Source: Escherichia coli (GTDB lineage: Bacteria; Pseudomonadota; Gammaproteobacteria; Enterobacterales; Enterobacteriaceae). Taken from it: a stretch of 64,000 nucleotides of DNA. The translations under genes were made by a program, and so were the position numbers. Below the pieces are notes generated by a model. That model was not told the origin of the DNA. It ran no database searches and saw only the letters and a list, made by a program, of their open reading frames with translations. The stretch's first letter is position 1. Every line of letters starts with the position of its first letter. Positions 11,494 through 62,032 of the stretch are shown here, one piece after another. The stretch lies in assembly GCF_965641715.1 (NCBI RefSeq), contig NZ_OZ282453.1; one strand, 5' to 3'.

Positions 11494-11570
<77 letters not shown>

Positions 11571-11603
11571 TCACCGTACTGCTTTTACTTCATCAAATTT
11601 GAT

Positions 11604-11680
<77 letters not shown>

Positions 11681-11713
11681 TCACCGTACTGCTTTACTTC
11701 ATCAAATTTTAAT

Positions 11714-11790
<77 letters not shown>

Positions 11791-13124: not shown

Positions 13125-13310
13125 ATATGACAGGGTGAGGGGTAACCTCACATCCTGATTATTGACTAAGTGCGCGTTGTTCATGCCGGATGCGGCGTGA
13201 ACGCCTTATCCGGCCTACAAATCATGCAAATCCAAAATATTGCAGGAGTTATGTAGGCCTGATAAGCGTAGCGCATCAGGCATTTATGCGTTTAGGGTGA
13301 GGGATAACCT
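13125..13310. repeat. BIME-like cluster of REP palindromes between mltA and tcdA
   Basis: gccggatgcggcgtgaacgccttatccggcctac and gtaggcctgataagcgtagcgcatcaggc REP units flanked by gtgaggggtaacctcac-type palindromes. Confidence 0.6.
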
Positions 13311-16275: not shown

Positions 16276-16481
16276 AAAAAAAAGCACCGCAATTAGGCGG
16301 TGCTACATTAATCACTATGGACAGACAGGGTAAATGTACAGGAAGTGAAAAAAGGTAGCTTTGCTACCATGGTCTGAATCGCAGACCAATTGCAAACACA
16401 ACAACACAACATCACAACCGTAAGCCAAAAGTTCACCAGAACACGCATTCCGACAAAACTTTTCGTTCCGGCTCAGGAAGT
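16276..16481 (-). ncRNA. gcvB: GcvB small regulatory RNA (Hfq-dependent, represses amino-acid/peptide transporters)
   Basis: Minus-strand sequence starts ACTTCCTGAGCCGGAACGAAAAG, contains the GU-rich TGTGATGTTGTGTTGTTGTGTT region, and ends in a GC hairpin plus U8; divergent from gcvA. Confidence 0.85.
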
Positions 16482-34652: not shown

Positions 34653-35019
34653 GTCGACAGGGAGTCAGACAACGAAGTGAACATCAGGATGATGACACTT
34701 CTGAAGGACACACCAGGATGGTGTTTCAGGGAAAGGCTTCTGGATGAAGCGAAGAGGATGACGCAGGACGCGTTAAAGGACACCTCCAGGATGGAGAATG
34801 AGAACCGGTCAGGATGATTCGGTGGGTCAGGAAGGCCAGGGACACTTCAGGATGAAGTATCACATCGGGGTGGTGTGAGCAGGAAGCAATAGTTCAGGAT
34901 GAACGATTGGCCGCAAGGCCAGAGGAAAAGTTGTCAAGGATGAGCAGGGAGCAACAAATGTAGCTGGAATGCTGCGAAACGAACCGGGAGCACTGTGAAT
35001 ACAGTGCTCCCTTTTTTTA
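34653..35019 (+). ncRNA. csrB: CsrB small RNA (CsrA-sequestering RNA)
   Basis: Starts GTCGACAGGGAGTCAGACAACGAAGTGAAC; about 18 GGA-containing CAGGAUG-like motifs; ends in hairpin gggagcactg...cagtgctccc plus T7. Confidence 0.9.
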
Positions 35020-35063
35020 TTCCTGCTATCCTTCGCGGCAGTTTTTCTTATTGAGGTTGCTTT

Positions 35064-44176: not shown

Positions 44177-45478
44177 ATGGCGCAATTCTACTCTGCAAAA
44201 CGACGCACGACGACGCGTCAGATCATAACCGTTTCAGTCAACGACCTCGACTCTTTTGGTCAGGGCGTGGCGCGACATAACGGCAAAACGCTATTTATCC
44301 CCGGATTATTGCCGCAGGAAAACGCGGAAGTTACTGTTACTGAAGATAAAAAACAGTATGCCCGCGCTAAAGTCGTACGCCGGTTAAGCGATAGCCCGGA
44401 ACGCGAAACGCCACGCTGTCCTCATTTTGGCGTATGCGGCGGCTGTCAGCAACAACACGCCAGCGTGGATTTACAGCAGCGAAGCAAAAGTGCGGCACTC
44501 GCCCGATTAATGAAACACGAAGTCTCTGAAGTGATCGCCGATGTTCCCTGGGGCTATCGCCGTCGCGCGCGTTTAAGTCTGAACTACTTACCGAAAACAC
44601 AGCAACTTCAGATGGGGTTTCGCAAAGCGGGCTCCAGTGACATTGTCGACGTTAAACAATGTCCCATTTTAGTGCCCCAACTTGAAGCATTGCTGCCCAA
44701 AGTCAGGGCATGCCTGGGCAGCTTACAAGCTATGCGCCATCTTGGTCATGTTGAACTGGTACAGGCAACCAGCGGCACGCTGATGATTTTGCGCCATACC
44801 GCACCGCTAAGTTCGGCAGATCGCGAAAAACTGGAACGCTTTTCGCATTCTGAAGGCCTGGATCTGTATCTCGCCCCCGATAGTGAGATACTCGAAACCG
44901 TCTCTGGTGAGATGCCCTGGTATGACTCAAACGGGTTGCGCTTAACTTTTAGCCCGCGCGATTTTATTCAGGTCAATGCGGGTGTGAACCAAAAAATGGT
45001 AGCGCGTGCGTTGGAATGGCTGGATGTGCAACCTGAAGATCGCGTACTGGATCTGTTCTGCGGTATGGGCAACTTTACACTGCCATTGGCGACACAAGCT
45101 GCCAGTGTGGTCGGTGTAGAAGGTGTTCCGGCGCTGGTGGAAAAAGGCCAGCAGAATGCGCGTCTTAATGGCTTACAGAATGTGACGTTTTATCACGAAA
45201 ATCTTGAAGAAGATGTCACAAAGCAGCCGTGGGCGAAAAACGGCTTCGATAAAGTGTTGCTGGACCCGGCGCGAGCAGGTGCCGCAGGTGTTATGCAGCA
45301 AATTATAAAACTGGAACCTATTCGTATAGTTTATGTATCCTGTAACCCTGCAACGCTGGCTCGGGATAGCGAAGCGTTATTAAAAGCAGGATATACCATT
45401 GCGCGACTGGCGATGCTGGATATGTTCCCACACACGGGACATCTGGAATCGATGGTACTTTTCTCGCGCGTTAAATAG
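44177..45478 (+). CDS. rlmD: 23S rRNA m5U1939 methyltransferase (TRAM and Fe-S cluster domains)
   Basis: 433 aa with [14 protein letters not shown] cluster motif. Confidence 0.9.
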
Positions 45479-45525
45479 TTGCGATTTGCCGATTTCGGCA
45501 GGTCTGGTCCCTAAAGGAGAGGACG

Positions 45526-47760
45526 ATGGTTGCGGTAAGAAGTGCACATATCAATAAGGCTGGTGAATTTGATCCGGAAAAATGGATCGCAAGTCTGGGT
45601 ATTACCAGCCAGAAGTCGTGTGAGTGCTTAGCCGAAACCTGGGCGTATTGTCTGCAACAGACGCAGGGGCATCCGGATGCCAGTCTGTTATTGTGGCGTG
45701 GTGTTGAGATGGTGGAGATCCTCTCGACATTAAGTATGGACATTGACACGCTGCGGGCGGCGCTGCTTTTCCCTCTGGCGGATGCCAACGTAGTCAGCGA
45801 AGATGTGCTGCGTGAGAGCGTCGGTAAGTCGGTCGTTAACCTTATTCACGGCGTGCGTGATATGGCGGCGATCCGCCAGCTGAAAGCGACGCACACTGAT
45901 TCTGTTTCCTCCGAACAGGTCGATAACGTTCGCCGGATGTTATTGGCGATGGTCGATGATTTTCGCTGCGTGGTCATCAAACTGGCGGAGCGTATTGCTC
46001 ATCTGCGTGAAGTAAAAGATGCGCCGGAAGATGAACGCGTACTGGCGGCAAAAGAGTGCACCAATATCTACGCGCCGTTGGCAAACCGTCTTGGGATTGG
46101 GCAACTGAAATGGGAGCTGGAAGATTACTGCTTCCGTTATCTCCACCCGACCGAATACAAACGCATCGCAAAACTGTTGCATGAACGCCGTCTCGACCGC
46201 GAACACTATATCGAAGAGTTTGTCGGCCATCTGCGCGCTGAGATGAAAGCTGAAGGCGTTAAAGCTGAAGTGTATGGTCGTCCGAAACACATCTACAGCA
46301 TCTGGCGCAAAATGCAGAAAAAGAACCTCGCCTTCGATGAGCTGTTTGATGTGCGTGCGGTACGTATTGTCGCCGAGCGTTTACAGGATTGTTATGCCGC
46401 ACTGGGGATAGTGCACACTCACTATCGCCACCTGCCGGATGAGTTTGATGATTACGTCGCTAACCCGAAACCAAACGGTTATCAGTCTATTCATACCGTG
46501 GTTCTGGGGCCGGGTGGAAAAACCGTTGAGATCCAAATCCGCACCAAACAGATGCATGAAGATGCAGAGTTGGGTGTTGCTGCGCACTGGAAATATAAAG
46601 AGGGCGCGGCAGCTGGCGGCGCACGTTCGGGACATGAAGACCGGATTGCCTGGCTGCGTAAACTGATTGCGTGGCAGGAAGAGATGGCTGATTCCGGCGA
46701 AATGCTCGACGAAGTACGCAGCCAGGTCTTTGACGACCGGGTGTACGTCTTTACGCCGAAAGGTGATGTCGTTGATTTGCCTGCGGGATCAACGCCGCTG
46801 GACTTCGCTTACCACATCCACAGTGATGTCGGGCACCGTTGCATCGGGGCAAAAATTGGCGGGCGCATTGTGCCGTTCACCTACCAGCTGCAGATGGGCG
46901 ACCAGATTGAAATTATCACCCAGAAACAGCCGAACCCCAGCCGTGACTGGTTAAACCCAAACCTCGGTTACGTCACAACCAGCCGTGGGCGTTCGAAAAT
47001 TCACGCCTGGTTCCGTAAACAGGACCGTGACAAAAACATTCTGGCTGGGCGGCAAATCCTTGACGACGAGCTGGAACATCTGGGGATCAGCCTGAAAGAA
47101 GCAGAAAAACATCTGCTGCCGCGTTACAACTTCAATGATGTCGACGAGTTGCTGGCGGCGATTGGTGGCGGGGATATCCGTCTCAATCAGATGGTGAACT
47201 TCCTGCAATCGCAATTTAATAAGCCGAGTGCCGAAGAGCAGGACGCCGCCGCGCTGAAACAGCTTCAGCAAAAAAGCTACACGCCGCAAAACCGCAGTAA
47301 AGATAACGGTCGTGTAGTGGTTGAAGGTGTTGGTAACCTGATGCACCACATCGCGCGCTGCTGCCAGCCGATTCCTGGAGATGAGATTGTCGGCTTCATT
47401 ACCCAGGGACGCGGTATTTCAGTACACCGCGCCGATTGCGAACAACTGGCGGAACTGCGCTCCCATGCGCCAGAACGCATTGTTGACGCGGTATGGGGTG
47501 AGAGCTACTCCGCCGGATATTCGCTGGTGGTCCGCGTGGTGGCTAATGATCGTAGTGGGTTGTTACGTGATATCACGACCATTCTCGCCAACGAGAAGGT
47601 GAACGTGCTTGGCGTTGCCAGCCGTAGCGACACCAAACAGCAACTGGCGACCATCGACATGACCATTGAGATTTACAACCTGCAAGTGCTGGGGCGCGTG
47701 CTGGGTAAACTCAACCAGGTGCCGGATGTTATCGACGCGCGTCGGTTGCACGGGAGTTAG
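45526..47760 (+). CDS. relA: GTP pyrophosphokinase, (p)ppGpp synthetase I
   Basis: 744 aa recognised as RelA. Confidence 0.95.
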   Translation: MVAVRSAHINKAGEFDPEKWIASLGITSQKSCECLAETWAYCLQQTQGHPDASLLLWRGVEMVEILSTLSMDIDTLRAALLFPLADANVVSEDVLRESVGKSVVNLIHGVRDMAAIRQLKATHTDSVSSEQVDNVRRMLLAMVDDFRCVVIKLAERIAHLREVKDAPEDERVLAAKECTNIYAPLANRLGIGQLKWELEDYCFRYLHPTEYKRIAKLLHERRLDREHYIEEFVGHLRAEMKAEGVKAEVYGRPKHIYSIWRKMQKKNLAFDELFDVRAVRIVAERLQDCYAALGIVHTHYRHLPDEFDDYVANPKPNGYQSIHTVVLGPGGKTVEIQIRTKQMHEDAELGVAAHWKYKEGAAAGGARSGHEDRIAWLRKLIAWQEEMADSGEMLDEVRSQVFDDRVYVFTPKGDVVDLPAGSTPLDFAYHIHSDVGHRCIGAKIGGRIVPFTYQLQMGDQIEIITQKQPNPSRDWLNPNLGYVTTSRGRSKIHAWFRKQDRDKNILAGRQILDDELEHLGISLKEAEKHLLPRYNFNDVDELLAAIGGGDIRLNQMVNFLQSQFNKPSAEEQDAAALKQLQQKSYTPQNRSKDNGRVVVEGVGNLMHHIARCCQPIPGDEIVGFITQGRGISVHRADCEQLAELRSHAPERIVDAVWGESYSAGYSLVVRVVANDRSGLLRDITTILANEKVNVLGVASRSDTKQQLATIDMTIEIYNLQVLGRVLGKLNQVPDVIDARRLHGS

Positions 47761-47774
47761 GCCGAAACTTGCTC

Positions 47775-47820
47775 GTATCTACAATGTAGATTGATATATA
47801 CTGTATCTACATATGATAGT
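47775..47820. promoter_or_regulatory. mazEF promoter/operator with alternating palindrome
   Basis: TCGTATCTACAATGTAGATTGATATATACTGTATCTACATATGATAG, overlapping palindromes upstream of the mazE start. Confidence 0.7.
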
Positions 47821-47837
47821 GGTTTGAGGAAAGGGTT

Positions 47838-48086
47838 ATGATCCACAGTAGCGTAAAGCGTTGGGGAAATTCACCGGCGGTGCGGATCCCGGCTACGTTA
47901 ATGCAGGCGCTCAATCTGAATATTGATGATGAAGTGAAGATTGACCTGGTGGATGGCAAATTAATTATTGAGCCAGTGCGTAAAGAGCCCGTATTTACGC
48001 TTGCTGAACTGGTCAACGACATCACGCCGGAAAACCTCCACGAGAATATCGACTGGGGAGAGCCGAAAGATAAGGAAGTCTGGTAA
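47838..48086 (+). CDS. mazE: Antitoxin MazE (AbrB/SpoVT fold)
   Basis: 82 aa; stop overlaps mazF start (TAATG). Confidence 0.95.
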
Positions 48087-48421
48087 TGGTAAGCCGATAC
48101 GTACCCGATATGGGCGATCTGATTTGGGTTGATTTTGACCCGACAAAAGGTAGCGAGCAAGCCGGACATCGTCCGGCTGTTGTCCTGAGTCCGTTCATGT
48201 ACAACAACAAAACAGGTATGTGTCTGTGTGTTCCTTGTACAACGCAATCAAAAGGATATCCGTTCGAAGTTGTTTTATCCGGTCAGGAACGTGATGGCGT
48301 AGCGTTAGCTGATCAGGTAAAAAGTATCGCCTGGCGGGCAAGAGGAGCAACGAAGAAAGGAACGGTTGCCCCAGAGGAATTACAACTCATTAAAGCCAAA
48401 ATTAACGTACTGATTGGGTAG
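48086..48421 (+). CDS. mazF: Toxin MazF, ACA-specific mRNA interferase
   Basis: 111 aa PemK/MazF fold. Confidence 0.95.
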   Translation: MVSRYVPDMGDLIWVDFDPTKGSEQAGHRPAVVLSPFMYNNKTGMCLCVPCTTQSKGYPFEVVLSGQERDGVALADQVKSIAWRARGATKKGTVAPEELQLIKAKINVLIG

Positions 48422-48492
48422 GTGTTACTAACTCACTTCTATTCTGGTCACAGGTTTCCACCTGACAGACCCGCAATTTTCAGGACATTCTA

Positions 48493-49284
48493 ATGAATCA
48501 AATCGACCGTTTGCTCACTATTATGCAGCGCCTGCGCGACCCGGAAAACGGCTGCCCGTGGGATAAAGAGCAGACATTTGCCACCATTGCGCCTTACACC
48601 CTTGAAGAAACCTACGAAGTGCTGGACGCCATCGCCCGTGAAGATTTTGACGATCTGCGCGGTGAACTGGGCGATCTGCTATTCCAGGTGGTGTTTTACG
48701 CGCAAATGGCTCAGGAAGAAGGGCGCTTTGACTTTAATGATATTTGCGCTGCTATTAGCGATAAATTAGAGCGTCGCCATCCGCATGTTTTTGCTGACAG
48801 TTCTGCCGAAAACAGTAGTGAAGTGCTTGCCCGTTGGGAGCAAATCAAAACCGAAGAGCGCGCGCAGAAAGCGCAGCATTCGGCGCTGGACGATATTCCT
48901 CGTAGTTTACCGGCTTTAATGCGGGCGCAAAAAATCCAGAAACGTTGCGCCAACGTTGGCTTCGACTGGACGACGCTTGGCCCAGTGGTTGATAAAGTCT
49001 ACGAAGAGATCGACGAGGTGATGTACGAGGCACGGCAGGCTGTTATCGACCAGGCTAAACTGGAGGAGGAAATGGGTGACCTGCTGTTTGCCACGGTCAA
49101 TCTGGCTCGTCATTTAGGGACAAAAGCGGAAATCGCATTGCAAAAAGCGAACGAAAAATTCGAGCGTCGTTTTCGCGAAGTGGAGCGTATTGTTGCCGCG
49201 CGTGGACTGGAAATGACAGGTGTTGACCTCGAAACAATGGAAGAAGTCTGGCAACAGGTAAAACGGCAGGAAATTGATCTCTAA
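48493..49284 (+). CDS. mazG: Nucleoside triphosphate pyrophosphohydrolase MazG
   Basis: 263 aa with tandem MazG domains. Confidence 0.9.
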   Translation: MNQIDRLLTIMQRLRDPENGCPWDKEQTFATIAPYTLEETYEVLDAIAREDFDDLRGELGDLLFQVVFYAQMAQEEGRFDFNDICAAISDKLERRHPHVFADSSAENSSEVLARWEQIKTEERAQKAQHSALDDIPRSLPALMRAQKIQKRCANVGFDWTTLGPVVDKVYEEIDEVMYEARQAVIDQAKLEEEMGDLLFATVNLARHLGTKAEIALQKANEKFERRFREVERIVAARGLEMTGVDLETMEEVWQQVKRQEIDL

Positions 49285-49496
49285 GGGAATTACGCGGTCA
49301 AGCGCCATTTGTGTCATTTTTTAAATGACAAGCGCTTGATTTGCGTCAAAAACATTTACCCCAAAGGGGCTATTTTCTCACTCCTGATTTCAATAGTGCG
49401 CTGGCGAAGAGGAGGGATAATGAAAGTTTGTGGCACAGGTCATGTTCGGGTATACTGCTTTCCCGTCCTGGTTATTCCATCGTCTTTTCAACCTAA

Positions 49497-51149
<1,653 letters not shown>

Positions 51150-52594: not shown

Positions 52595-53488
52595 TTACCA
52601 GCGACCGGACGCGCCGCCACCGCCAGAAGAACCGCCCCCGCCGCTAAATCCGCCGCCACTTGAGCCTCCACCGGAAGAGGATGAAGAAGAACCTTTTCTT
52701 GAAGCTCTATCTTTACTGAGTTTTTTGTATTTGGCGCGTAGCTTTTTATTGACGATAAGCCAAAAAATAACCAGTGGTACGATCGCAAAAGGCGTTAACA
52801 TACCGCAGGCAACGATTAAATTGGTCCATGGTCCTGGCTCGGCAACATAGAGGAATACCATCCCGTAAATGGCGCCAGTGAGAGTGATCCAGGGTAAATT
52901 CGACGGATCGGTAAAAACAATAAAATATGAAAGTACCGCCAGCAATATAATTACAGCAAGCGATAATGGAATAGGGGGATTGATACTGTAATAATCCCCC
53001 CTGTCTTCCGGTAATTCACCATTCAACAGAAGCGCGCCGATATTTTCGCTTGCCAGTGTTAATCCACCCATCAGGTCGTCACTTTTGAAGGCAGGGATCA
53101 ATATATCCCTGATAATCTTCGCCGCTTGCAGGTCGGTTACCACCCCTTCCAGCCCGTAGCCAACCTCAATACGAACAGCATGATCCTCCCTGGCAACCAG
53201 AAGTAAAATACCATCGTTTCTCTGCTTATCTCCCAGTTTCCAGCTATCAAAAACCCTTGTAGCATATTGTTCAATGGAATCGTCTCCGGTGGACGGCACT
53301 ACTAATACAGCGACCTGCGCCCGTGTTTTATGTGTAATATCCTGCAGTTGCTGTGTCAGTGATTGTTGTTCAGACGTGCTTAACGTACCAGTAATATCGG
53401 TCACCTGTTGGCGCAGCTCCGGCACAGCAATTTGCTGGGCAAGCCCGGGAAGGCTCCACAAAGCAAGTAGAATAAAGATTAAGCGCAT
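52595..53488 (-). CDS. TPM-domain membrane protein, YgcG family, paralog 1 (promoter-distal)
   Basis: ORF track 52595-53500 begins at a non-ATG codon; likely ATG start at MRLIFILLALWSLPGLA (signal peptide); TPM fold motifs (LVVPSTGDDSIEQYATRVFDSWK, DGILLLVA, RIEVGYGLEG); C-terminal TM segments then Ser/Gly tail ...GGGSSGGGGASGRW. Confidence 0.8.
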   Translation of the reverse strand: MRLIFILLALWSLPGLAQQIAVPELRQQVTDITGTLSTSEQQSLTQQLQDITHKTRAQVAVLVVPSTGDDSIEQYATRVFDSWKLGDKQRNDGILLLVAREDHAVRIEVGYGLEGVVTDLQAAKIIRDILIPAFKSDDLMGGLTLASENIGALLLNGELPEDRGDYYSINPPIPLSLAVIILLAVLSYFIVFTDPSNLPWITLTGAIYGMVFLYVAEPGPWTNLIVACGMLTPFAIVPLVIFWLIVNKKLRAKYKKLSKDRASRKGSSSSSSGGGSSGGGFSGGGGSSGGGGASGRW

Positions 53489-53493
53489 TACGA

Positions 53494-54642
53494 TCACCAA
53501 CGGCCGGATGAACCGCCGCCTCCTGAAGAACCGCCACCACCGCGGAAAGAATTCCTCGACGAAGAGCGAGAATGAGCATTACGATTCCCCGTTTTCCTGT
53601 TGCTTTTTTCTCCTGACCCCAGCTTAAGATTGCCAGTAAATTTGGCCACAATGATCAGCAGAACGATGCCAGCAATGGTTATTGGGCCGATAAAATGATC
53701 AATTAACCCAATAATTGTTGAGATGAATGCAATATCTTTATTACTGGCGAACACCAGGCACCATCCCACAATAATTATCAGCATCACGACAAACAATGAA
53801 TTTCGTCCTGATTCACGAACCTGCGGAGTCTTCTTTTGTTTTTTCACTTTAGCGTTTTTATTTTTTGGGGCCAGCATCATAGGAAATACGCGGCACAAAT
53901 TAAAAACTACCGCGAGACGCTGCTTGCAGGTTGTTGCTAACAATAAACTAAAACAAACGACCGATACCCGCCGAATGATGACATCGTCCTGAAAGGAGAA
54001 AAACCAGACCATAGGGGTAATCATCGATATCATCCATATGCCACGCCGTGGGCGGCTGGCAAATCGCCAGAGGACAACGATGGCAACGATCATCAGCAGT
54101 GTCCAGGCAAGACATGGCAGCGAACGTTGCGGATTAGCAAACAGATGATTGGCTAAAGCATCCAAAGGGCTAAGGTTCGCTTTGATATGGGTAAACTGTG
54201 CGATGCTTTCAATTCCGCCCGTTAATCCAGCAAAGAGATTGTTTTTTTCGAATTCTGGCTGCATATGGTAACGAACAATTTGCGCAGCTTGTTCCGGCGG
54301 CAACATCTCTTCCAGTCCATGTCCAATCTTCATTGACGCCAGCCCTTCCGGCCATACGACGAGAATTAAGATACCTTCGCCATATCGCTTCTCTCCAACG
54401 GGTTTCCAGTGATATACCCCGTATCTCTGCGAGGCTGCAAGTTTAATGTTTTTGCCCCCTGTGGTCGGCGTAACCAACACGGCCACCTGGAAGTGGTTTT
54501 GCTGCTCGAGAGTCTGTAATTGTTGAGTTAAAGCAGTTTGTTCTTCTGTCGTTAATGTCCCGGTTAAGTCAGTCACTGAAGGCAATCGTTCAGCGAATAC
54601 CTGAAAACCGCATAGCATCAGAAGTAAGAGAAAAATACGCAT
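53494..54642 (-). CDS. TPM-domain membrane protein, divergent paralog 2 with long polytopic C-terminal region
   Basis: 382 aa; signal peptide; TPM-like N-terminal domain; several hydrophobic segments; tail ...RGGGGSSGGGGSSGRW; 5-nt gap to paralog 1 start. Confidence 0.75.
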   Translation of the reverse strand: MRIFLLLLMLCGFQVFAERLPSVTDLTGTLTTEEQTALTQQLQTLEQQNHFQVAVLVTPTTGGKNIKLAASQRYGVYHWKPVGEKRYGEGILILVVWPEGLASMKIGHGLEEMLPPEQAAQIVRYHMQPEFEKNNLFAGLTGGIESIAQFTHIKANLSPLDALANHLFANPQRSLPCLAWTLLMIVAIVVLWRFASRPRRGIWMISMITPMVWFFSFQDDVIIRRVSVVCFSLLLATTCKQRLAVVFNLCRVFPMMLAPKNKNAKVKKQKKTPQVRESGRNSLFVVMLIIIVGWCLVFASNKDIAFISTIIGLIDHFIGPITIAGIVLLIIVAKFTGNLKLGSGEKSNRKTGNRNAHSRSSSRNSFRGGGGSSGGGGSSGRW

Positions 54643-54656
54643 ATCAATTCCTTTTG

Positions 54657-55550
54657 TTACCAGCGCCCGGAAGCGCCACCGCCACCAGATGAACCGCCAC
54701 CACCGCTGAAATTGTCATTGTTGAATGAAGAGGATGACGATGATGAATAGTGGGAGGAAGAATTGCTTCTTGTATGGCGTGATGGCTGGTTGACATCACG
54801 CATCAAATCCCGAACTTTTTTGCCGAAGGGGGTAAAAGCGATGGCGACAGCCAGGAACGGTGTGGCGAAGCAGAGTAATGTTGCGAGTACTCCCCAGCTT
54901 CCGCTGAAGCCTGCTATAGGTAAAACAAAGGCCAGTACAATAGCTGCGAAGCAAATTACTCCCAGCGTTTTGATATATCCTCTGGCAGAAATAAACGTCA
55001 GTACTATCGCCCAGACTAACAATGCCCACCAACCGCTAAAGGGCAAAGGGTGATCGGTCGGTGTTATCGTTGCTAAATTATTCCCCGTAAGACGACTTTC
55101 AATATCGCTGATCCCCTTTTGTAAACCGCCAGCCAGGTCGCCTTTTTTAAATGCAGGAATAATACTGTTGCGAATAATTTTCCCGGACTGTGCATCCGTA
55201 ATAATACCTTCCAGCCCGTAACCGATTTCAATACGCACGGTATGATCCTGCCAGGCGACTAACAGTAGAACGCCATCATCACGGTCTTTATCACCCGGTT
55301 TCCAGCTATCGAATACCCGCGTTGCGTACTGCTCGATGGTTTCATCGCCTGTTGTATCAACCACTAACACGACCAACTGTGCGTGGTTTTTTTGCGTCAG
55401 GGCTTTAATCTGGTTGGTCAGGGTGTTTACTTCGCTGTTTGTTAATGTGCCGGTTAAGTCATTCACATACTTGGGGGATTCAGGTACTGGAATTTGTGTG
55501 GCAAACACAGATGAACAGAAGAAAGCCATAAGGAAGATAAAATTTCGCAT
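54657..55550 (-). CDS. TPM-domain membrane protein, YgcG family, paralog 3
   Basis: ORF track 54657-55580; likely start at MRNFIFLMAFFCSSVFA (55550); shares IEQYATRVFDSWK and RIEIGYGLEG blocks with paralog 1; tail ...SGGGGSSGGGGASGRW. Confidence 0.8.
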   Translation of the reverse strand: MRNFIFLMAFFCSSVFATQIPVPESPKYVNDLTGTLTNSEVNTLTNQIKALTQKNHAQLVVLVVDTTGDETIEQYATRVFDSWKPGDKDRDDGVLLLVAWQDHTVRIEIGYGLEGIITDAQSGKIIRNSIIPAFKKGDLAGGLQKGISDIESRLTGNNLATITPTDHPLPFSGWWALLVWAIVLTFISARGYIKTLGVICFAAIVLAFVLPIAGFSGSWGVLATLLCFATPFLAVAIAFTPFGKKVRDLMRDVNQPSRHTRSNSSSHYSSSSSSSFNNDNFSGGGGSSGGGGASGRW

Positions 55551-55563
55551 AGAACTTCCCCGC

Positions 55564-56184
55564 TTAATGAGCATTAGCATTCTGGCTAAAATCTATTGTT
55601 GGGGCTTTACTTACTGCGGCGACATCATCCGGTAAATAATTTTTCTTTGGCGTGTAATCCATGACCTTTGCGGTTAATACAGCGGGGAATTTGCGGATAG
55701 TGACATTATATTGTTCAATGGCTTTAATATATCTTCCTCGCGCAACGGCAATTCTATTTTCACTTCCTTCGAGCTGTACCATTAAGTTTTGATAGAGCTC
55801 TTGAGCCTTTAACTCAGGGTAACGCTCACTAATTATCGTTAACTGACCGAGAGTGCGAGTCACCTGCGCCTGGGCCTGTTGCCAGGCTTGTAATTTTTGT
55901 GCATCTCCGGGAGCTTGCTGAAGATCGCTGCTGGCGCGATTAGCCTGGCTACGAGCCAATGTTACGGCTTCCAAAACGTCTTTTTCATGGTTGGAATAAC
56001 CTTTAATACTGGCGACAAGATTAGGAATAAGATCGGCGCGACGTTGATATTGATTTAATACCTCAGACCAGGAGGCGTTAACCTGCTCATCATAGGTTTG
56101 AATATCGTTATATCCACAGCCTGATAAATTGAAAATAAATATAATTACGATGAATATCCTGAGCATGTTTAAATCCTTTTTCAT
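55564..56184 (-). CDS. lemA: LemA-family lipoprotein
   Basis: 206 aa; lipobox NLSGC; LemA blocks QRRADLIPNLV, ERYPELKA, GSENRIAVARGRY; stop lies 13 nt upstream of TPM paralog 3 start. Confidence 0.8.
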   Translation of the reverse strand: MKKDLNMLRIFIVIIFIFNLSGCGYNDIQTYDEQVNASWSEVLNQYQRRADLIPNLVASIKGYSNHEKDVLEAVTLARSQANRASSDLQQAPGDAQKLQAWQQAQAQVTRTLGQLTIISERYPELKAQELYQNLMVQLEGSENRIAVARGRYIKAIEQYNVTIRKFPAVLTAKVMDYTPKKNYLPDDVAAVSKAPTIDFSQNANAH

Positions 56185-56338: not shown

Positions 56339-57010
56339 ATGCAGTACCCGATTAACGAGATGTTCCAGACCCTGCAAGGTGAGGGTTACTTTACCGGCGT
56401 CCCCGCCATTTTTATTCGTTTACAGGGATGCCCGGTTGGCTGTGCCTGGTGCGACACCAAACACACCTGGGAAAAGCTTGAGGATCGGGAAGTCTCCCTT
56501 TTCAGCATTCTGGCGAAGACCAAAGAGAGTGATAAGTGGGGGGCGGCGAGCAGTGAAGACTTGTTGGCTGTCATTAGTCGCCAGGGATACACCGCGCGGC
56601 ATGTGGTGATTACGGGTGGTGAGCCTTGCATTCATGATTTGCTACCACTGACTGATCTGCTCGAAAAGAACGGTTTTAGCTGCCAGATCGAGACCAGTGG
56701 TACTCATGAGGTACGCTGTACACCGAATACCTGGGTTACCGTATCGCCAAAGCTGAACATGCGCGGCGGCTATGAAGTGTTGTCACAGGCACTGGAGCGA
56801 GCCAACGAAATCAAGCACCCAGTGGGACGCGTACGTGATATTGAAGCACTGGATGAACTTTTGGCGACGCTGACCGATGATAAACCGCGAGTCATTGCAC
56901 TGCAGCCGATTAGCCAAAAGGATGATGCCACACGTTTGTGCATTGAAACCTGCATTGCGCGTAATTGGCGTTTGTCGATGCAAACCCATAAATATTTAAA
57001 TATTGCCTGA
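56339..57010 (+). CDS. queE: 7-carboxy-7-deazaguanine synthase (radical SAM)
   Basis: 223 aa with CPVGCAWC cluster motif; recognised as QueE/YgcF. Confidence 0.9.
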   Translation: MQYPINEMFQTLQGEGYFTGVPAIFIRLQGCPVGCAWCDTKHTWEKLEDREVSLFSILAKTKESDKWGAASSEDLLAVISRQGYTARHVVITGGEPCIHDLLPLTDLLEKNGFSCQIETSGTHEVRCTPNTWVTVSPKLNMRGGYEVLSQALERANEIKHPVGRVRDIEALDELLATLTDDKPRVIALQPISQKDDATRLCIETCIARNWRLSMQTHKYLNIA

Positions 57011-57348: not shown

Positions 57349-58353
57349 GAGTTCCCCGCGCCAGCGGGGATAAACCGGGCGACCGGCAGGCGGCCTATGC
57401 GTTTTTCACGAGTTCCCCGCGCCAGCGGGGATAAACCGGGGCATTAGAATAACTTAAATGGAAAAAGAAAGAGTTCCCCGCGCCAGCGGGGATAAACCGG
57501 CCTTATCTCTGCTTGGATTCTCTGCTGATGTGAGTTCCCCGCGCCAGCGGGGATAAACCGCGGCGCACACGTTGTATTTGTGCTGCCTATGCGAGTTCCC
57601 CGCGCCAGCGGGGATAAACCGCCCACCAGCGCGTTTTTTGCCGGGGCCATAGTGAGTTCCCCGCGCCAGCGGGGATAAACCGGCAATGCTCGTACGCCGT
57701 CTCACTCCGCGTGAGAGTTCCCCGCGCCAGCGGGGATAAACCGCGGGGGCGCGGGGTGTGGACGCATTCACAGCAGAGTTCCCCGCGCCAGCGGGGATAA
57801 ACCGTATATGCAGTGCTGACAGACCGGGGGGCGCAAGAGTTCCCCGCGCCAGCGGGGATAAACCGGCAACGCAGGAACCGCAGGCGGTTCGTCATCTGAG
57901 TTCCCCGCGCCAGCGGGGATAAACCGCTTGCCGCGCCAGGGTATTTTTGTGTGGTCGTGAGTTCCCCGCGCCAGCGGGGATAAACCGTCCGCAACAACTC
58001 AGAGAACCAGACACCAAGCGAGTTCCCCGCGCCAGCGGGGATAAACCGTTTCGCCGCCGGGAAAATTTATATTAACGTTGGAGTTCCCCGCGCCAGCGGG
58101 GATAAACCGCGAAGCACGTCGGGGACCGTAAGGCGTTTGAAGAGTTCCCCGCGCCAGCGGGGATAAACCGCAATCCACGCCGAAGCGCTGGAAATGGAAA
58201 AAGAGTTCCCCGCGCCAGCGGGGATAAACCGTTTACCTGCTCGGTGATATCGTCCTGCAAATCGAGTTCCCCGCGCCAGCGGGGATAAACCGGGTACAAA
58301 AGAGGCCCCATTCTGGCAGGGCTCAAGTTCCCCGCGCCAGCGGGGATAAACCA
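57349..58353 (+). CRISPR. Type I-E CRISPR array: 17 repeats of 29 bp, 16 spacers of 32 bp
   Basis: Repeat GAGTTCCCCGCGCCAGCGGGGATAAACCG with exact 61-bp period from 57349; terminal repeat degenerate (AAGTTCCCCGCGCCAGCGGGGATAAACCA, 58325-58353); leader at the 57349 end sets + orientation. Confidence 0.97.
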
Positions 58354-58824
58354 CCATATAACCCATTATCTCTTTCTCAAGTTTTTATATTAGCAGTACT
58401 CGTAATAAGCAACATATCCACGTAACACCTCATGTTCAGAATAGCTCGCCATATATGAGAAGTTCACAATTATCGATACAAAAAATTAAATTTAATCAAA
58501 GTGTTATTTGTATGATGCTTAAACCGTTAAGAAATTTTCATATATTATTTTTTTTAATGTTGAATTAATGTCTATTAATTTTTTCTTCAGGATAATAGTT
58601 TGTTTTTTAAGCTTGTTATTCATTGATTAAGTAATAAATCAGAAAAATTGTCTTTGTTTTGAGGCTAATGAGTGGTTTTACATAACCGCCTCTATACGCT
58701 GTTGATGAATAGTTCTTATGAATAAAGATATCCAGTTCATACTTTAAGTGAAAATTGATAAAGTGCGATTCGTATTGTCTTTTATTCTAAAGACATCGAG
58801 TGTAGTTAATATTCCTTGTAAAAA

Positions 58825-58884
58825 CAGGGATAAACCGAACTAGTTAAAGTTTTTATTATGTTCCCCGCGTCAGCGGGGATAACC
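58825..58884 (+). CRISPR. Degenerate CRISPR repeat remnant (decayed second mini-array)
   Basis: cagggataaaccg (58825-58837), 22-nt spacer-like gap, then gttccccgcgtcagcggggataacc (58860-58884); preceded by a second AT-rich leader-like stretch. Confidence 0.6.
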
Positions 58885-58931: not shown

Positions 58932-60410
58932 TTACGCATTCGACCAGCTCTGGATCGAATCCGCATTTCCCAATTCCCCATGCATCACTTCATACGATTT
59001 TTTCAGAATCACATCAGTATGTTTGGTTAGGTCTTTGAAAATGCCTTTATTCATCGCGTCGTAGCGTTTGGCATTGCTCTCAATCGGTATAAAGATATCT
59101 TTCACGCGAACCATTTTATCGACAGCCGTTGCGTAATCCGGGTATAGCCCCAGACCTACCGCTGTATTAATCGCTGCCCCCAGACTTGCACAACCGTTAA
59201 TGGCGTTACGTCGTGCCGGAAGGTTGAACACGTCGGCAAAAATCTGCATAAACAGATCGCTGTTCGAACCGCCGCCAGTAATGATTACATGCTTCGCAAA
59301 GTGATTCATTTCATTACACATATTGTCGTAATTGTTCTTCAGCGTCAGCGCCACGCTTTCCAGTATCGAACGATATATCCATGCGTAATCCATGCTGGAA
59401 TCAAAGCCGATCATAATCCCGCGTTTGTACGGTTCCCACGGATTGGTCAGCCAGTCCAGCACCGTCATCAGCCCATTACAGCCAGGTGGCACACTAGAGG
59501 CTTTCTTGTTGAGTAAATCTTCCGGTGAAAGATCCTGCGCCCTGGCATCCTGAATTAACGACTCGCCTAACATGTCGCGCAGCCAGCTCACCGTCCACAT
59601 GCCTTTGCGAATACCGTAACCTTCATACAGCAATGTTTGCGGAATAGAAGACATAATCGGCCAGTACGCCACCGGATCTTTCGGCAGTGCTTTGCCGTTC
59701 ATCATCAATGCGATGTAAGTGCCAAGAGAAATTACCGCAGTTTCATCATCCAGTAATCCGGCCCCCAGAGCTTCTACCGGTTTATCACTGGTGGTACAAA
59801 CAACCGGCAGCCCTGCCGGGAAATGTGTCGCCAGCGCGGCTTGTGGTGTGATCTGTCCAAGAACAGTGCCTGGCATTTGCACATCAAACAGCATATGACG
59901 GGGGATATTAAACTTCTCCATGACTGCGGCATCTTCACTCCATGCCCAGCTCTTATAATCCACCGGCCACTGACCAAAATAGTTGGCGATATTGTCTTTA
60001 AACTCGCCGGTTAAGCGATGCGTCAGATAACCCGAAAAAGAGGTGACATAGGCCACGTCAGGATTAGTGTGTTCGTAGGGACGCGTTACGCGTGCATCCT
60101 GCCAGCTAATCAATGGCGCAGCTGGCGTGCCATCGGCTTTCAATAACGCACGGCAGCAACGGATGGATCCCAGACCAATAACGACAATATCTTCTTTATT
60201 CCCGGCAAACTGACTCATCAAATCGTGACCGGCAAAACATAATGATGCCCATAAATCGTCGTCAGGATGTTCTGCGGTATCGGCATCTGGCGTGTGCATC
60301 GGCTGCAATAAACCTTTGCCTTCGCAAACCACGTTACCTTCCAGATCGTACATCACCACTTTTGTGCTCTGACTTCCGCCATCAATCCCTATGATGTATT
60401 TCTTCGACAT
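58932..60410 (-). CDS. ygcE: FGGY-family carbohydrate kinase, substrate unknown
   Basis: 492 aa with FGGY N- and C-terminal domains (GIDGGSQSTK start). Confidence 0.85.
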   Translation of the reverse strand: MSKKYIIGIDGGSQSTKVVMYDLEGNVVCEGKGLLQPMHTPDADTAEHPDDDLWASLCFAGHDLMSQFAGNKEDIVVIGLGSIRCCRALLKADGTPAAPLISWQDARVTRPYEHTNPDVAYVTSFSGYLTHRLTGEFKDNIANYFGQWPVDYKSWAWSEDAAVMEKFNIPRHMLFDVQMPGTVLGQITPQAALATHFPAGLPVVCTTSDKPVEALGAGLLDDETAVISLGTYIALMMNGKALPKDPVAYWPIMSSIPQTLLYEGYGIRKGMWTVSWLRDMLGESLIQDARAQDLSPEDLLNKKASSVPPGCNGLMTVLDWLTNPWEPYKRGIMIGFDSSMDYAWIYRSILESVALTLKNNYDNMCNEMNHFAKHVIITGGGSNSDLFMQIFADVFNLPARRNAINGCASLGAAINTAVGLGLYPDYATAVDKMVRVKDIFIPIESNAKRYDAMNKGIFKDLTKHTDVILKKSYEVMHGELGNADSIQSWSNA

Positions 60411-61714: not shown

Positions 61715-61960
61715 ATCGTATTCCCATTTGTAATAGACAAAAAAAAGAGAAAAGTAAGCCGCCCTTTCAGGTGGATTACTTTTCTCAGGTCTCTAGTAAT
61801 TGAAATAATAAATAACATGGAAAGCAGAGGTGTTGTGTGAGAGTAATCACGCTTCTGCTTTTTAAAACTATTTGATAATGCGAATATCACACTGTGATTA
61901 CGATCACATTAGCAGTTATGTCCTTATGCTACAAATTATCTCCAGTTACCAGAGATAATG

Positions 61961-62009
61961 AGAAAGGTAACTTCCCTCTCGCGGGGGAAGTTACCTTTCT
62001 TTTTTTTTG
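61961..62009 (+). terminator. Terminator-like hairpin plus T9 in the ygcW 5' leader (candidate attenuator)
   Basis: agaaaggtaacttccc-tctcgcgg-gggaagttacctttct (16-bp perfect stem) followed by ttttttttt; ends 24 nt upstream of the ygcW ATG. Confidence 0.6.
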
Positions 62010-62032
62010 CCTTACGGAAATTGGAGCTAACT

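Follow-up and report, generated by a model that had tools for sequence, protein, structure and literature searches.

The window, a stretch of 64,000 nucleotides, was identified as E. coli chromosome, with positions 1-52676 colinear with K-12 2959176-2906502 at 98.7% identity. Between relA and mazG it carries the antitoxin gene mazE and the toxin gene mazF, together with an operator/promoter region upstream of mazE (Table 1). The relA stop codon (47758-47760) was found 77 nt upstream of mazE, in agreement with the predicted placement of mazEF downstream of relA, and mazG starts 71 nt after mazF. The order rlmD-relA-mazE-mazF-mazG-pyrG-eno is annotated identically in RefSeq E. coli genomes. Gene integrity, gene overlap, identity of the proteins and operator to K-12, palindrome geometry, position and cassette boundaries were all computed from the nucleotide sequence.

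Table 1. Features of the mazEF locus and of other variable parts of the window
Feature	Position	Strand	Basis
relA, 744 aa, upstream neighbour	45526-47760	+	ORF; Pfam HD_4, RelA_SpoT, TGS, ACT; RefSeq homologous loci
mazEF-specific cassette, 698 bp	47761-48458	+	comparison with the empty relA-mazG junction of TC_EC10
mazEF operator/promoter ('cab' core), 48 bp	47772-47819	+	exact match to published oligonucleotide
MazE-dimer site c	47775-47793	+	placed via the cab oligonucleotide of Zorzini et al. 2015
MazE-dimer site a	47791-47804	+	placed via the cab oligonucleotide of Zorzini et al. 2015
MazE-dimer site b	47796-47814	+	placed via the cab oligonucleotide of Zorzini et al. 2015
Putative Shine-Dalgarno-like GAGGA	47826-47830	+	read from sequence; 7 nt to mazE ATG
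mazE, antitoxin, 82 aa, ATG start	47838-48086	+	ORF, Pfam, NCBIfam, K-12 identity, PDB
mazF, ACA-specific endoribonuclease toxin, 111 aa, ATG start	48086-48421	+	ORF, Pfam, NCBIfam, K-12 identity, PDB
aMEF position (K-12 ameF, b4844)	about 48126 to 47727	minus	coordinates transferred from K-12 annotation
mazG, nucleoside triphosphate pyrophosphohydrolase, downstream neighbour	48493-49284	+	ORF; Pfam MazG E 2.3e-39; RefSeq
Three tandem TPM-domain genes	52595-53500, 53494-54642, 54657-55580	minus	window versus K-12 comparison
LemA-family gene	55564-56184	minus	window versus K-12 comparison
CRISPR array	57349-58354, plus degenerate repeat near 58858		E. coli type I-E repeat GAGTTCCCCGCGCCAGCGGGGATAAACCG

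The antitoxin gene lies directly 5' of the toxin gene and overlaps it, which is the layout of a type II toxin-antitoxin (TA) operon. Base 48086 is common to the mazE stop codon (TAA, 48084-48086) and the mazF start codon (ATG, 48086-48088), so that the one-nucleotide overlap of the original prediction (TAATG) was borne out. Inspection of the mazE and mazF frames in the sequence and in the ORF list revealed no frameshift and no internal stop, and both ORFs, for which such lesions had been named as the possible refutation, are intact. The span first reported for the module ran from the first base of site c (47775) to the very end of the stop codon of mazF (48421).

MazE matched the Pfam family MazE_antitoxin (PF04014, E 3.5e-14, residues 6-51) and MazF matched PemK_toxin (PF02452, E 5.9e-24, residues 10-109), and both passed NCBIfam equivalog models (NF007312, 196.2 bits, cutoff 113, and NF007386 'endoribonuclease MazF', 227.4 bits, cutoff 120, respectively). 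In the PDB, full-length matches of MazE were found in 1mvf_D, 1ub4_C and 2mrn, and MazF matched 3nfc, 5ck9 (a series) and 1ub4, the last of these being the MazE-MazF complex; structures of these very sequences have thus been solved already. Pairwise comparison with the K-12 proteins, which had been proposed as a check, found MazE and MazF to be 100% identical to their K-12 counterparts and hence free of substitutions. MazE has the N-terminal swapped-hairpin DNA-binding domain of AbrB/SpoVT type (PF04014, NF007312, PDB) and the C-terminal toxin-neutralising tail (residues 1-82 are identical to K-12 and match the 1ub4 chain over its full length), and MazF has the PemK-like toxin domain over its entire length. 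Residues E24, R29 and T52 of MazF, read in the translation, are all present and identical to K-12; E. coli MazF needs them for catalysis and substrate binding, the parts played by R29 and T52 being known from the MazF structural literature. An E24A mutant of MazF is inactive (PMC5888573).

The Pfam and NCBIfam assignments, the identity to K-12 and the RefSeq annotation of homologous loci all upheld the view of the locus as a known type II TA system. It is nearly certain that it represents the canonical chromosomal mazEF (chpA) module of E. coli, intact and with K-12-identical proteins and operator; no result spoke against this identification, and the annotation of the module in the window can be regarded as certified. 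The mazEF module is the most studied chromosomal type II TA system and was the first chromosomal TA system ever described. As a module it is already known and nothing about it is new; the differences are a few silent or flanking SNPs.

Operator, promoter region and antisense RNA

The mazEF operator was described by Zorzini et al. 2015 as a 47-bp element in which MazE dimers occupy three sites (c, a and b), and for which oligonucleotide sequences were given (PMC4333400). The 48-nt core of the published 'cab' oligonucleotide occurs exactly upstream of mazE in the window, and the same 48 nt are also identical to K-12. Within this core, ATCTACA (47777-47783) pairs with TGTAGAT (47785-47791), and ATGTAGAT (47784-47791) pairs with ATCTACAT (47805-47812). 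These two inverted repeats overlap, and the middle arm can therefore pair with either the upstream or the downstream arm, a geometry that corresponds to the 'alternating palindrome' of Marianovsky et al. 2001, as that work is cited in PMC4333400 and PMC5888573. The operator also contains two directly repeated copies of GTATCTACA (47775 and 47803) as well as the palindrome ATATAT (47794-47799). The characteristic overlapping palindromes expected 5' of mazE were thus found, and with a sequence identical to that of the experimentally characterised cab operator the module has the palindromic operator in the promoter region, predicted to be bound by the antitoxin, that is typical of type II TA operons.

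The whole 64-kb window was scanned for three-arm configurations (7-nt arms, gaps of at most 20 nt), with first-order Markov sequences of the same length as the null. Two loci were found in the window versus a mean of 0.22 in the random sequences, and such configurations are thus rare by chance. The second locus (61966) was rejected as unrelated to the mazEF operator: it belongs to an ordinary intrinsic terminator at 61940-62010, in which a strong GC-rich hairpin (AGAAAGGTAACTTCCC...GGGAAGTTACCTTTCT) is followed by a T-run.

A promoter scan returned TTGATA-18-GATAGT (47791-47820) and ATGATA-18-TATGAT (47813-47842), both of which are consensus matches only. The first is reported because a SNP at 47820 (T; C in K-12) turns the -10-like hexamer GATAGC of K-12 into GATAGT. 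A second SNP flanking the operator lies at 47768 (C; T in K-12), and the two, being located downstream and upstream, respectively, leave sites c, a and b untouched. Four further SNPs relative to K-12 were found in mazF (48163, 48175, 48193 and 48364), all of them synonymous, which is consistent with purifying selection, and the mazF-mazG spacer differs by three SNPs and an indel of 1 bp. Nikolic et al. 2018 gave the number of ACA sites as two for mazE and nine for mazF, and reported that MazF cleaves its own mRNA (PMC5888573). Our counts for K-12 were likewise 2 and 9, and those for the window were 2 and 8, the one ACA fewer in mazF being due to the synonymous SNP at 48364, which destroys a site.

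The position of the antisense RNA aMEF, a feature absent from the original prediction, begins opposite the 5' part of mazF, takes in the whole of mazE and the operator, and extends over the final 34 nt of relA. According to Van Gundy et al. 2022, aMEF is transcribed from a weak, non-canonical promoter, stimulates mazEF expression and is not detected by Northern blot in wild-type cells (PMC8749433). Three SNPs relative to K-12 (at -37, -49 and -67) fall within the 75 bp that lie upstream of the start of aMEF. An Rfam search of 45000-50000, at E values up to 1, gave no structured-RNA match; aMEF itself is not an Rfam family. Also antisense to mazE/mazF, and overlapping aMEF, is a TTG-initiated ORF of 146 aa (47807-48247, minus strand), a mechanically listed candidate only. 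Elsewhere in the window, Rfam matches at the gathering threshold (11497-11790, 13218-13260, 16276-16481 and 34662-35021) represented three tandem tRNA genes (the metZ-metW-metV position in K-12), the ES036 sRNA, GcvB and CsrB, at the positions expected from K-12.

For this strain, enzymatic activity, binding to DNA, proteolysis and the antisense RNA are inferred from the identity of the module to that of K-12. By this reasoning, the MazF dimer would act as an endoribonuclease cutting single-stranded RNA at ACA, its own mRNA included, as do the K-12 proteins (PMC5888573). The MazE dimer would combine its N-terminal AbrB/SpoVT-type DNA-binding domain with a disordered acidic C-terminal tail, which would wrap MazF dimers into an inactive MazF2-MazE2-MazF2 complex, one MazE dimer thereby neutralising two MazF dimers. 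MazE, enhanced by MazF, would bind the adjacent sites c, a and b and so repress transcription, while aMEF reportedly stimulates mazEF expression. Lon and ClpAP break MazE down (PMC5888573, PMC8749433), and a fall in MazE synthesis would be expected to free MazF. The operator-flanking SNPs, the SNPs upstream of aMEF and the lost ACA site could each slightly alter this regulation. A lesser reading, judged to be improbable, is that the changes particular to the strain (the GATAGT hexamer, the three aMEF-promoter changes and the lost ACA site) would shift the autoregulatory set-point of the module.

An accessory cassette between relA and mazG

In E. coli TC_EC10, mazG directly follows relA over a 95-bp spacer, and mazEF is missing. 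Alignment of this empty allele with the occupied allele of the window showed that identity stops at the relA stop codon (47760) and resumes at 48459, 34 bp before the mazG ATG. The two alleles thus share their flanks, namely relA through its stop codon and the 34 bp that precede mazG, whereas TC_EC10 has 61 unrelated bp instead of the 698-bp cassette. These 61 bp include a hairpin with a 12-bp stem (GCTGGATATGGC-GTCA-GCCGTATCCAGC). The two E. coli alleles are accordingly related by replacement rather than by simple insertion. Neither flanking direct repeats nor a recombinase were seen at the cassette edges in the allele alignments. The GC content of the cassette is 46%, versus 54% for relA and 51% for mazG.

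The hairpin of the empty junction of TC_EC10 (L003 2448-2542) comes immediately behind the stop codon of relA, and for the 95-nt spacer a fold of -33 kcal/mol was predicted. It may represent a terminator or attenuator of relA, or a repeat element.

The distribution of the two alleles was determined by megablast against 5426 complete E. coli genomes, using the interval from the relA stop to the mazG start as query and requiring a coverage of at least 80%. The cassette was carried by 4415 genomes (~81%) and the mazEF-less junction, at the same coverage, by 1007 (~19%), the two together accounting for 5422 of the 5426 genomes. The polymorphism as such has been published: for UTI89-type strains, Fraikin et al. 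2020 stated that 'relA-mazG ... form undisturbed bicistronic operons' (PMC7167474). The module is hence better framed as an accessory cassette, missing in about one fifth of complete E. coli genomes, than as an invariant component of a stringent-response operon of relA and mazG. Its exact boundaries could be of use for studying the gain and loss of chromosomal TA cassettes.

The locus had also been listed because TA modules may anchor defence or stress islands, an expectation that did not hold here. The cassette stands alone between core genes, MazE, MazF and MazG gave no match to PADLOC defence-system models, and no defence genes adjoin it. No clustering of defence or mobile-element genes was found at the locus, where nothing but the 698-bp cassette is variable. 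The closest defence-related feature is the CRISPR array, ~9 kb away and past mazG, pyrG, eno and queE. The nearest other variable features are a TPM/LemA gene cluster (52.6-56.2 kb) and the same CRISPR array (57.3-58.4 kb), with core genes intervening.

The TPM/LemA cluster occupies a segment downstream of eno at which the window departs from K-12 (52595-56184, minus strand). Each of its TPM-domain genes ends in a Gly/Ser-rich tail (...GGGGSSGGGGxSGRW). K-12 has only ygcG and yqcG at this position, and the full four-gene cluster was present in ~1102 of the 5426 complete E. coli genomes. The CRISPR array, located between queE (56339-57010) and ygcE (58932-60410), comprises 17 repeats with a 61-nt period and 16 spacers, and no cas genes adjoin it within the window. 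The corresponding stretch of K-12 gave a fragmentary match at ~90% identity only. When the spacers were searched against phage records, every match was due to the repeats and fell in a record with CRISPR arrays of its own.

Roles of the cassette and its relation to relA and mazG

The physiological role of mazEF is disputed (PMC7167474), and growth arrest, cell death, phage exclusion and selfish maintenance are all candidates. There is roughly an even chance that the cassette is mainly a selfish/addictive element, or else a module for abortive infection against phages, which landed between two cistrons at a permissive site and lies next to relA only incidentally. The presence/absence polymorphism with exact boundaries and the low GC content of the cassette both speak for this interpretation, as does the occurrence of parDE at the relA-mazG junction of Salmonella (PMC7167474). 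Related mazEF modules were moreover found by blastn on 142 plasmids of a plasmid collection, mostly conjugative and from Klebsiella, Providencia and Proteus, at ~65-70% DNA identity over roughly half of the cassette. The cassette of the window itself, however, was not found in phage records, and no true plasmid of the collection carried it at more than 70% identity; an apparent plasmid-borne copy (NZ_OL790696.1, 98.7% identity) was discarded, this 4.8-Mb E. coli record evidently being a misfiled chromosome. Mobility would also have to be explained in spite of cassette edges at which neither repeats nor a recombinase were seen. As for a role against phages, deletion of mazEF raises P1 infection loads (PMC7167474), but the evidence for phage defence consists of few reports only, and the negative PADLOC result and the lack of adjoining defence genes count against it.

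According to the original prediction, relA-mazEF-mazG also links (p)ppGpp metabolism to an mRNA interferase. The adjacency on which this was built is real, whereas coupling as an established fact did not stand. In its full form, the idea is that the three loci act as one functionally integrated stringent-response unit, in which ppGpp made by RelA would stop mazEF transcription, MazE would decay, MazF would bring about programmed cell death and MazG would restrain the process. The gene order and the short gaps (77 nt and 71 nt) would allow co-transcription, mazEF has been reported to be in an operon with relA (PMC7167474), and the Engelberg-Kulka/Glaser model is set out in PMC1626106. Set against this are the 1007 genomes in which relA is followed by mazG without mazEF: since the cassette is polymorphic, coupling is a contested inference and not an established one, and the existence of such natural alleles without mazEF speaks against a functional need for the adjacency. 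The sharp edges of the cassette and its GC content below that of both neighbours are likewise as expected of an insertion. In addition, the data on ppGpp dependence are contradictory, and a review argues that mazEF was inserted irrespective of what the genes on either side do (PMC7167474). Functional integration of this kind is consequently considered unlikely.

The relA-mazG junction might alternatively be a site-specific hotspot at which small TA cassettes are exchanged, by a mechanism left unspecified. This is suggested by the character of the alleles as replacements (698 versus 61 bp), with sharp breakpoints and no visible flanking repeats, and by the Salmonella parDE already mentioned; the mechanism of TA integration is called unelucidated in the field (PMC7167474). 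Such a hotspot is nevertheless judged to be improbable. That the module has decayed or lost its activity, as a pseudogene or a toxin-dead allele, has a negligible probability and is refuted at the sequence level, given that both frames are intact, that the proteins do not differ from the experimentally active K-12 alleles, that E24, R29 and T52 of MazF are retained and that the four mazF SNPs are all synonymous, while no evidence in its support was found.

Comparison with known systems

The closest counterpart of the module is mazEF of K-12 (chpA; b2783/b2782), which shares with it both proteins, the 48-bp operator core, the TAATG overlap and the neighbours relA and mazG, and from which it differs by the SNPs and the spacer indel given above. 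The E. coli chromosome has a paralogous module, chpBIK (chpB; ChpS/ChpBK), which is likewise a member of the MazE/MazF-PemI/PemK superfamily and whose operon is arranged in the same way. Assignment of the locus to chpB was rejected, with scores of 34.6 bits against a cutoff of 101 for ChpS and 55.2 bits against a cutoff of 129 for ChpB. Among plasmid systems, mazEF has been described as 'a homolog of R100 pem system' (PMC7167474). The pemIK module of R100, kis-kid (parD of R1) and the mazEF modules of Klebsiella, Providencia and Proteus plasmids share with the module of the window a PemK-like fold of the toxin and an operon that begins with the antitoxin gene, but they are plasmid-maintenance modules in a genomic context unlike that of the cassette between relA and mazG.
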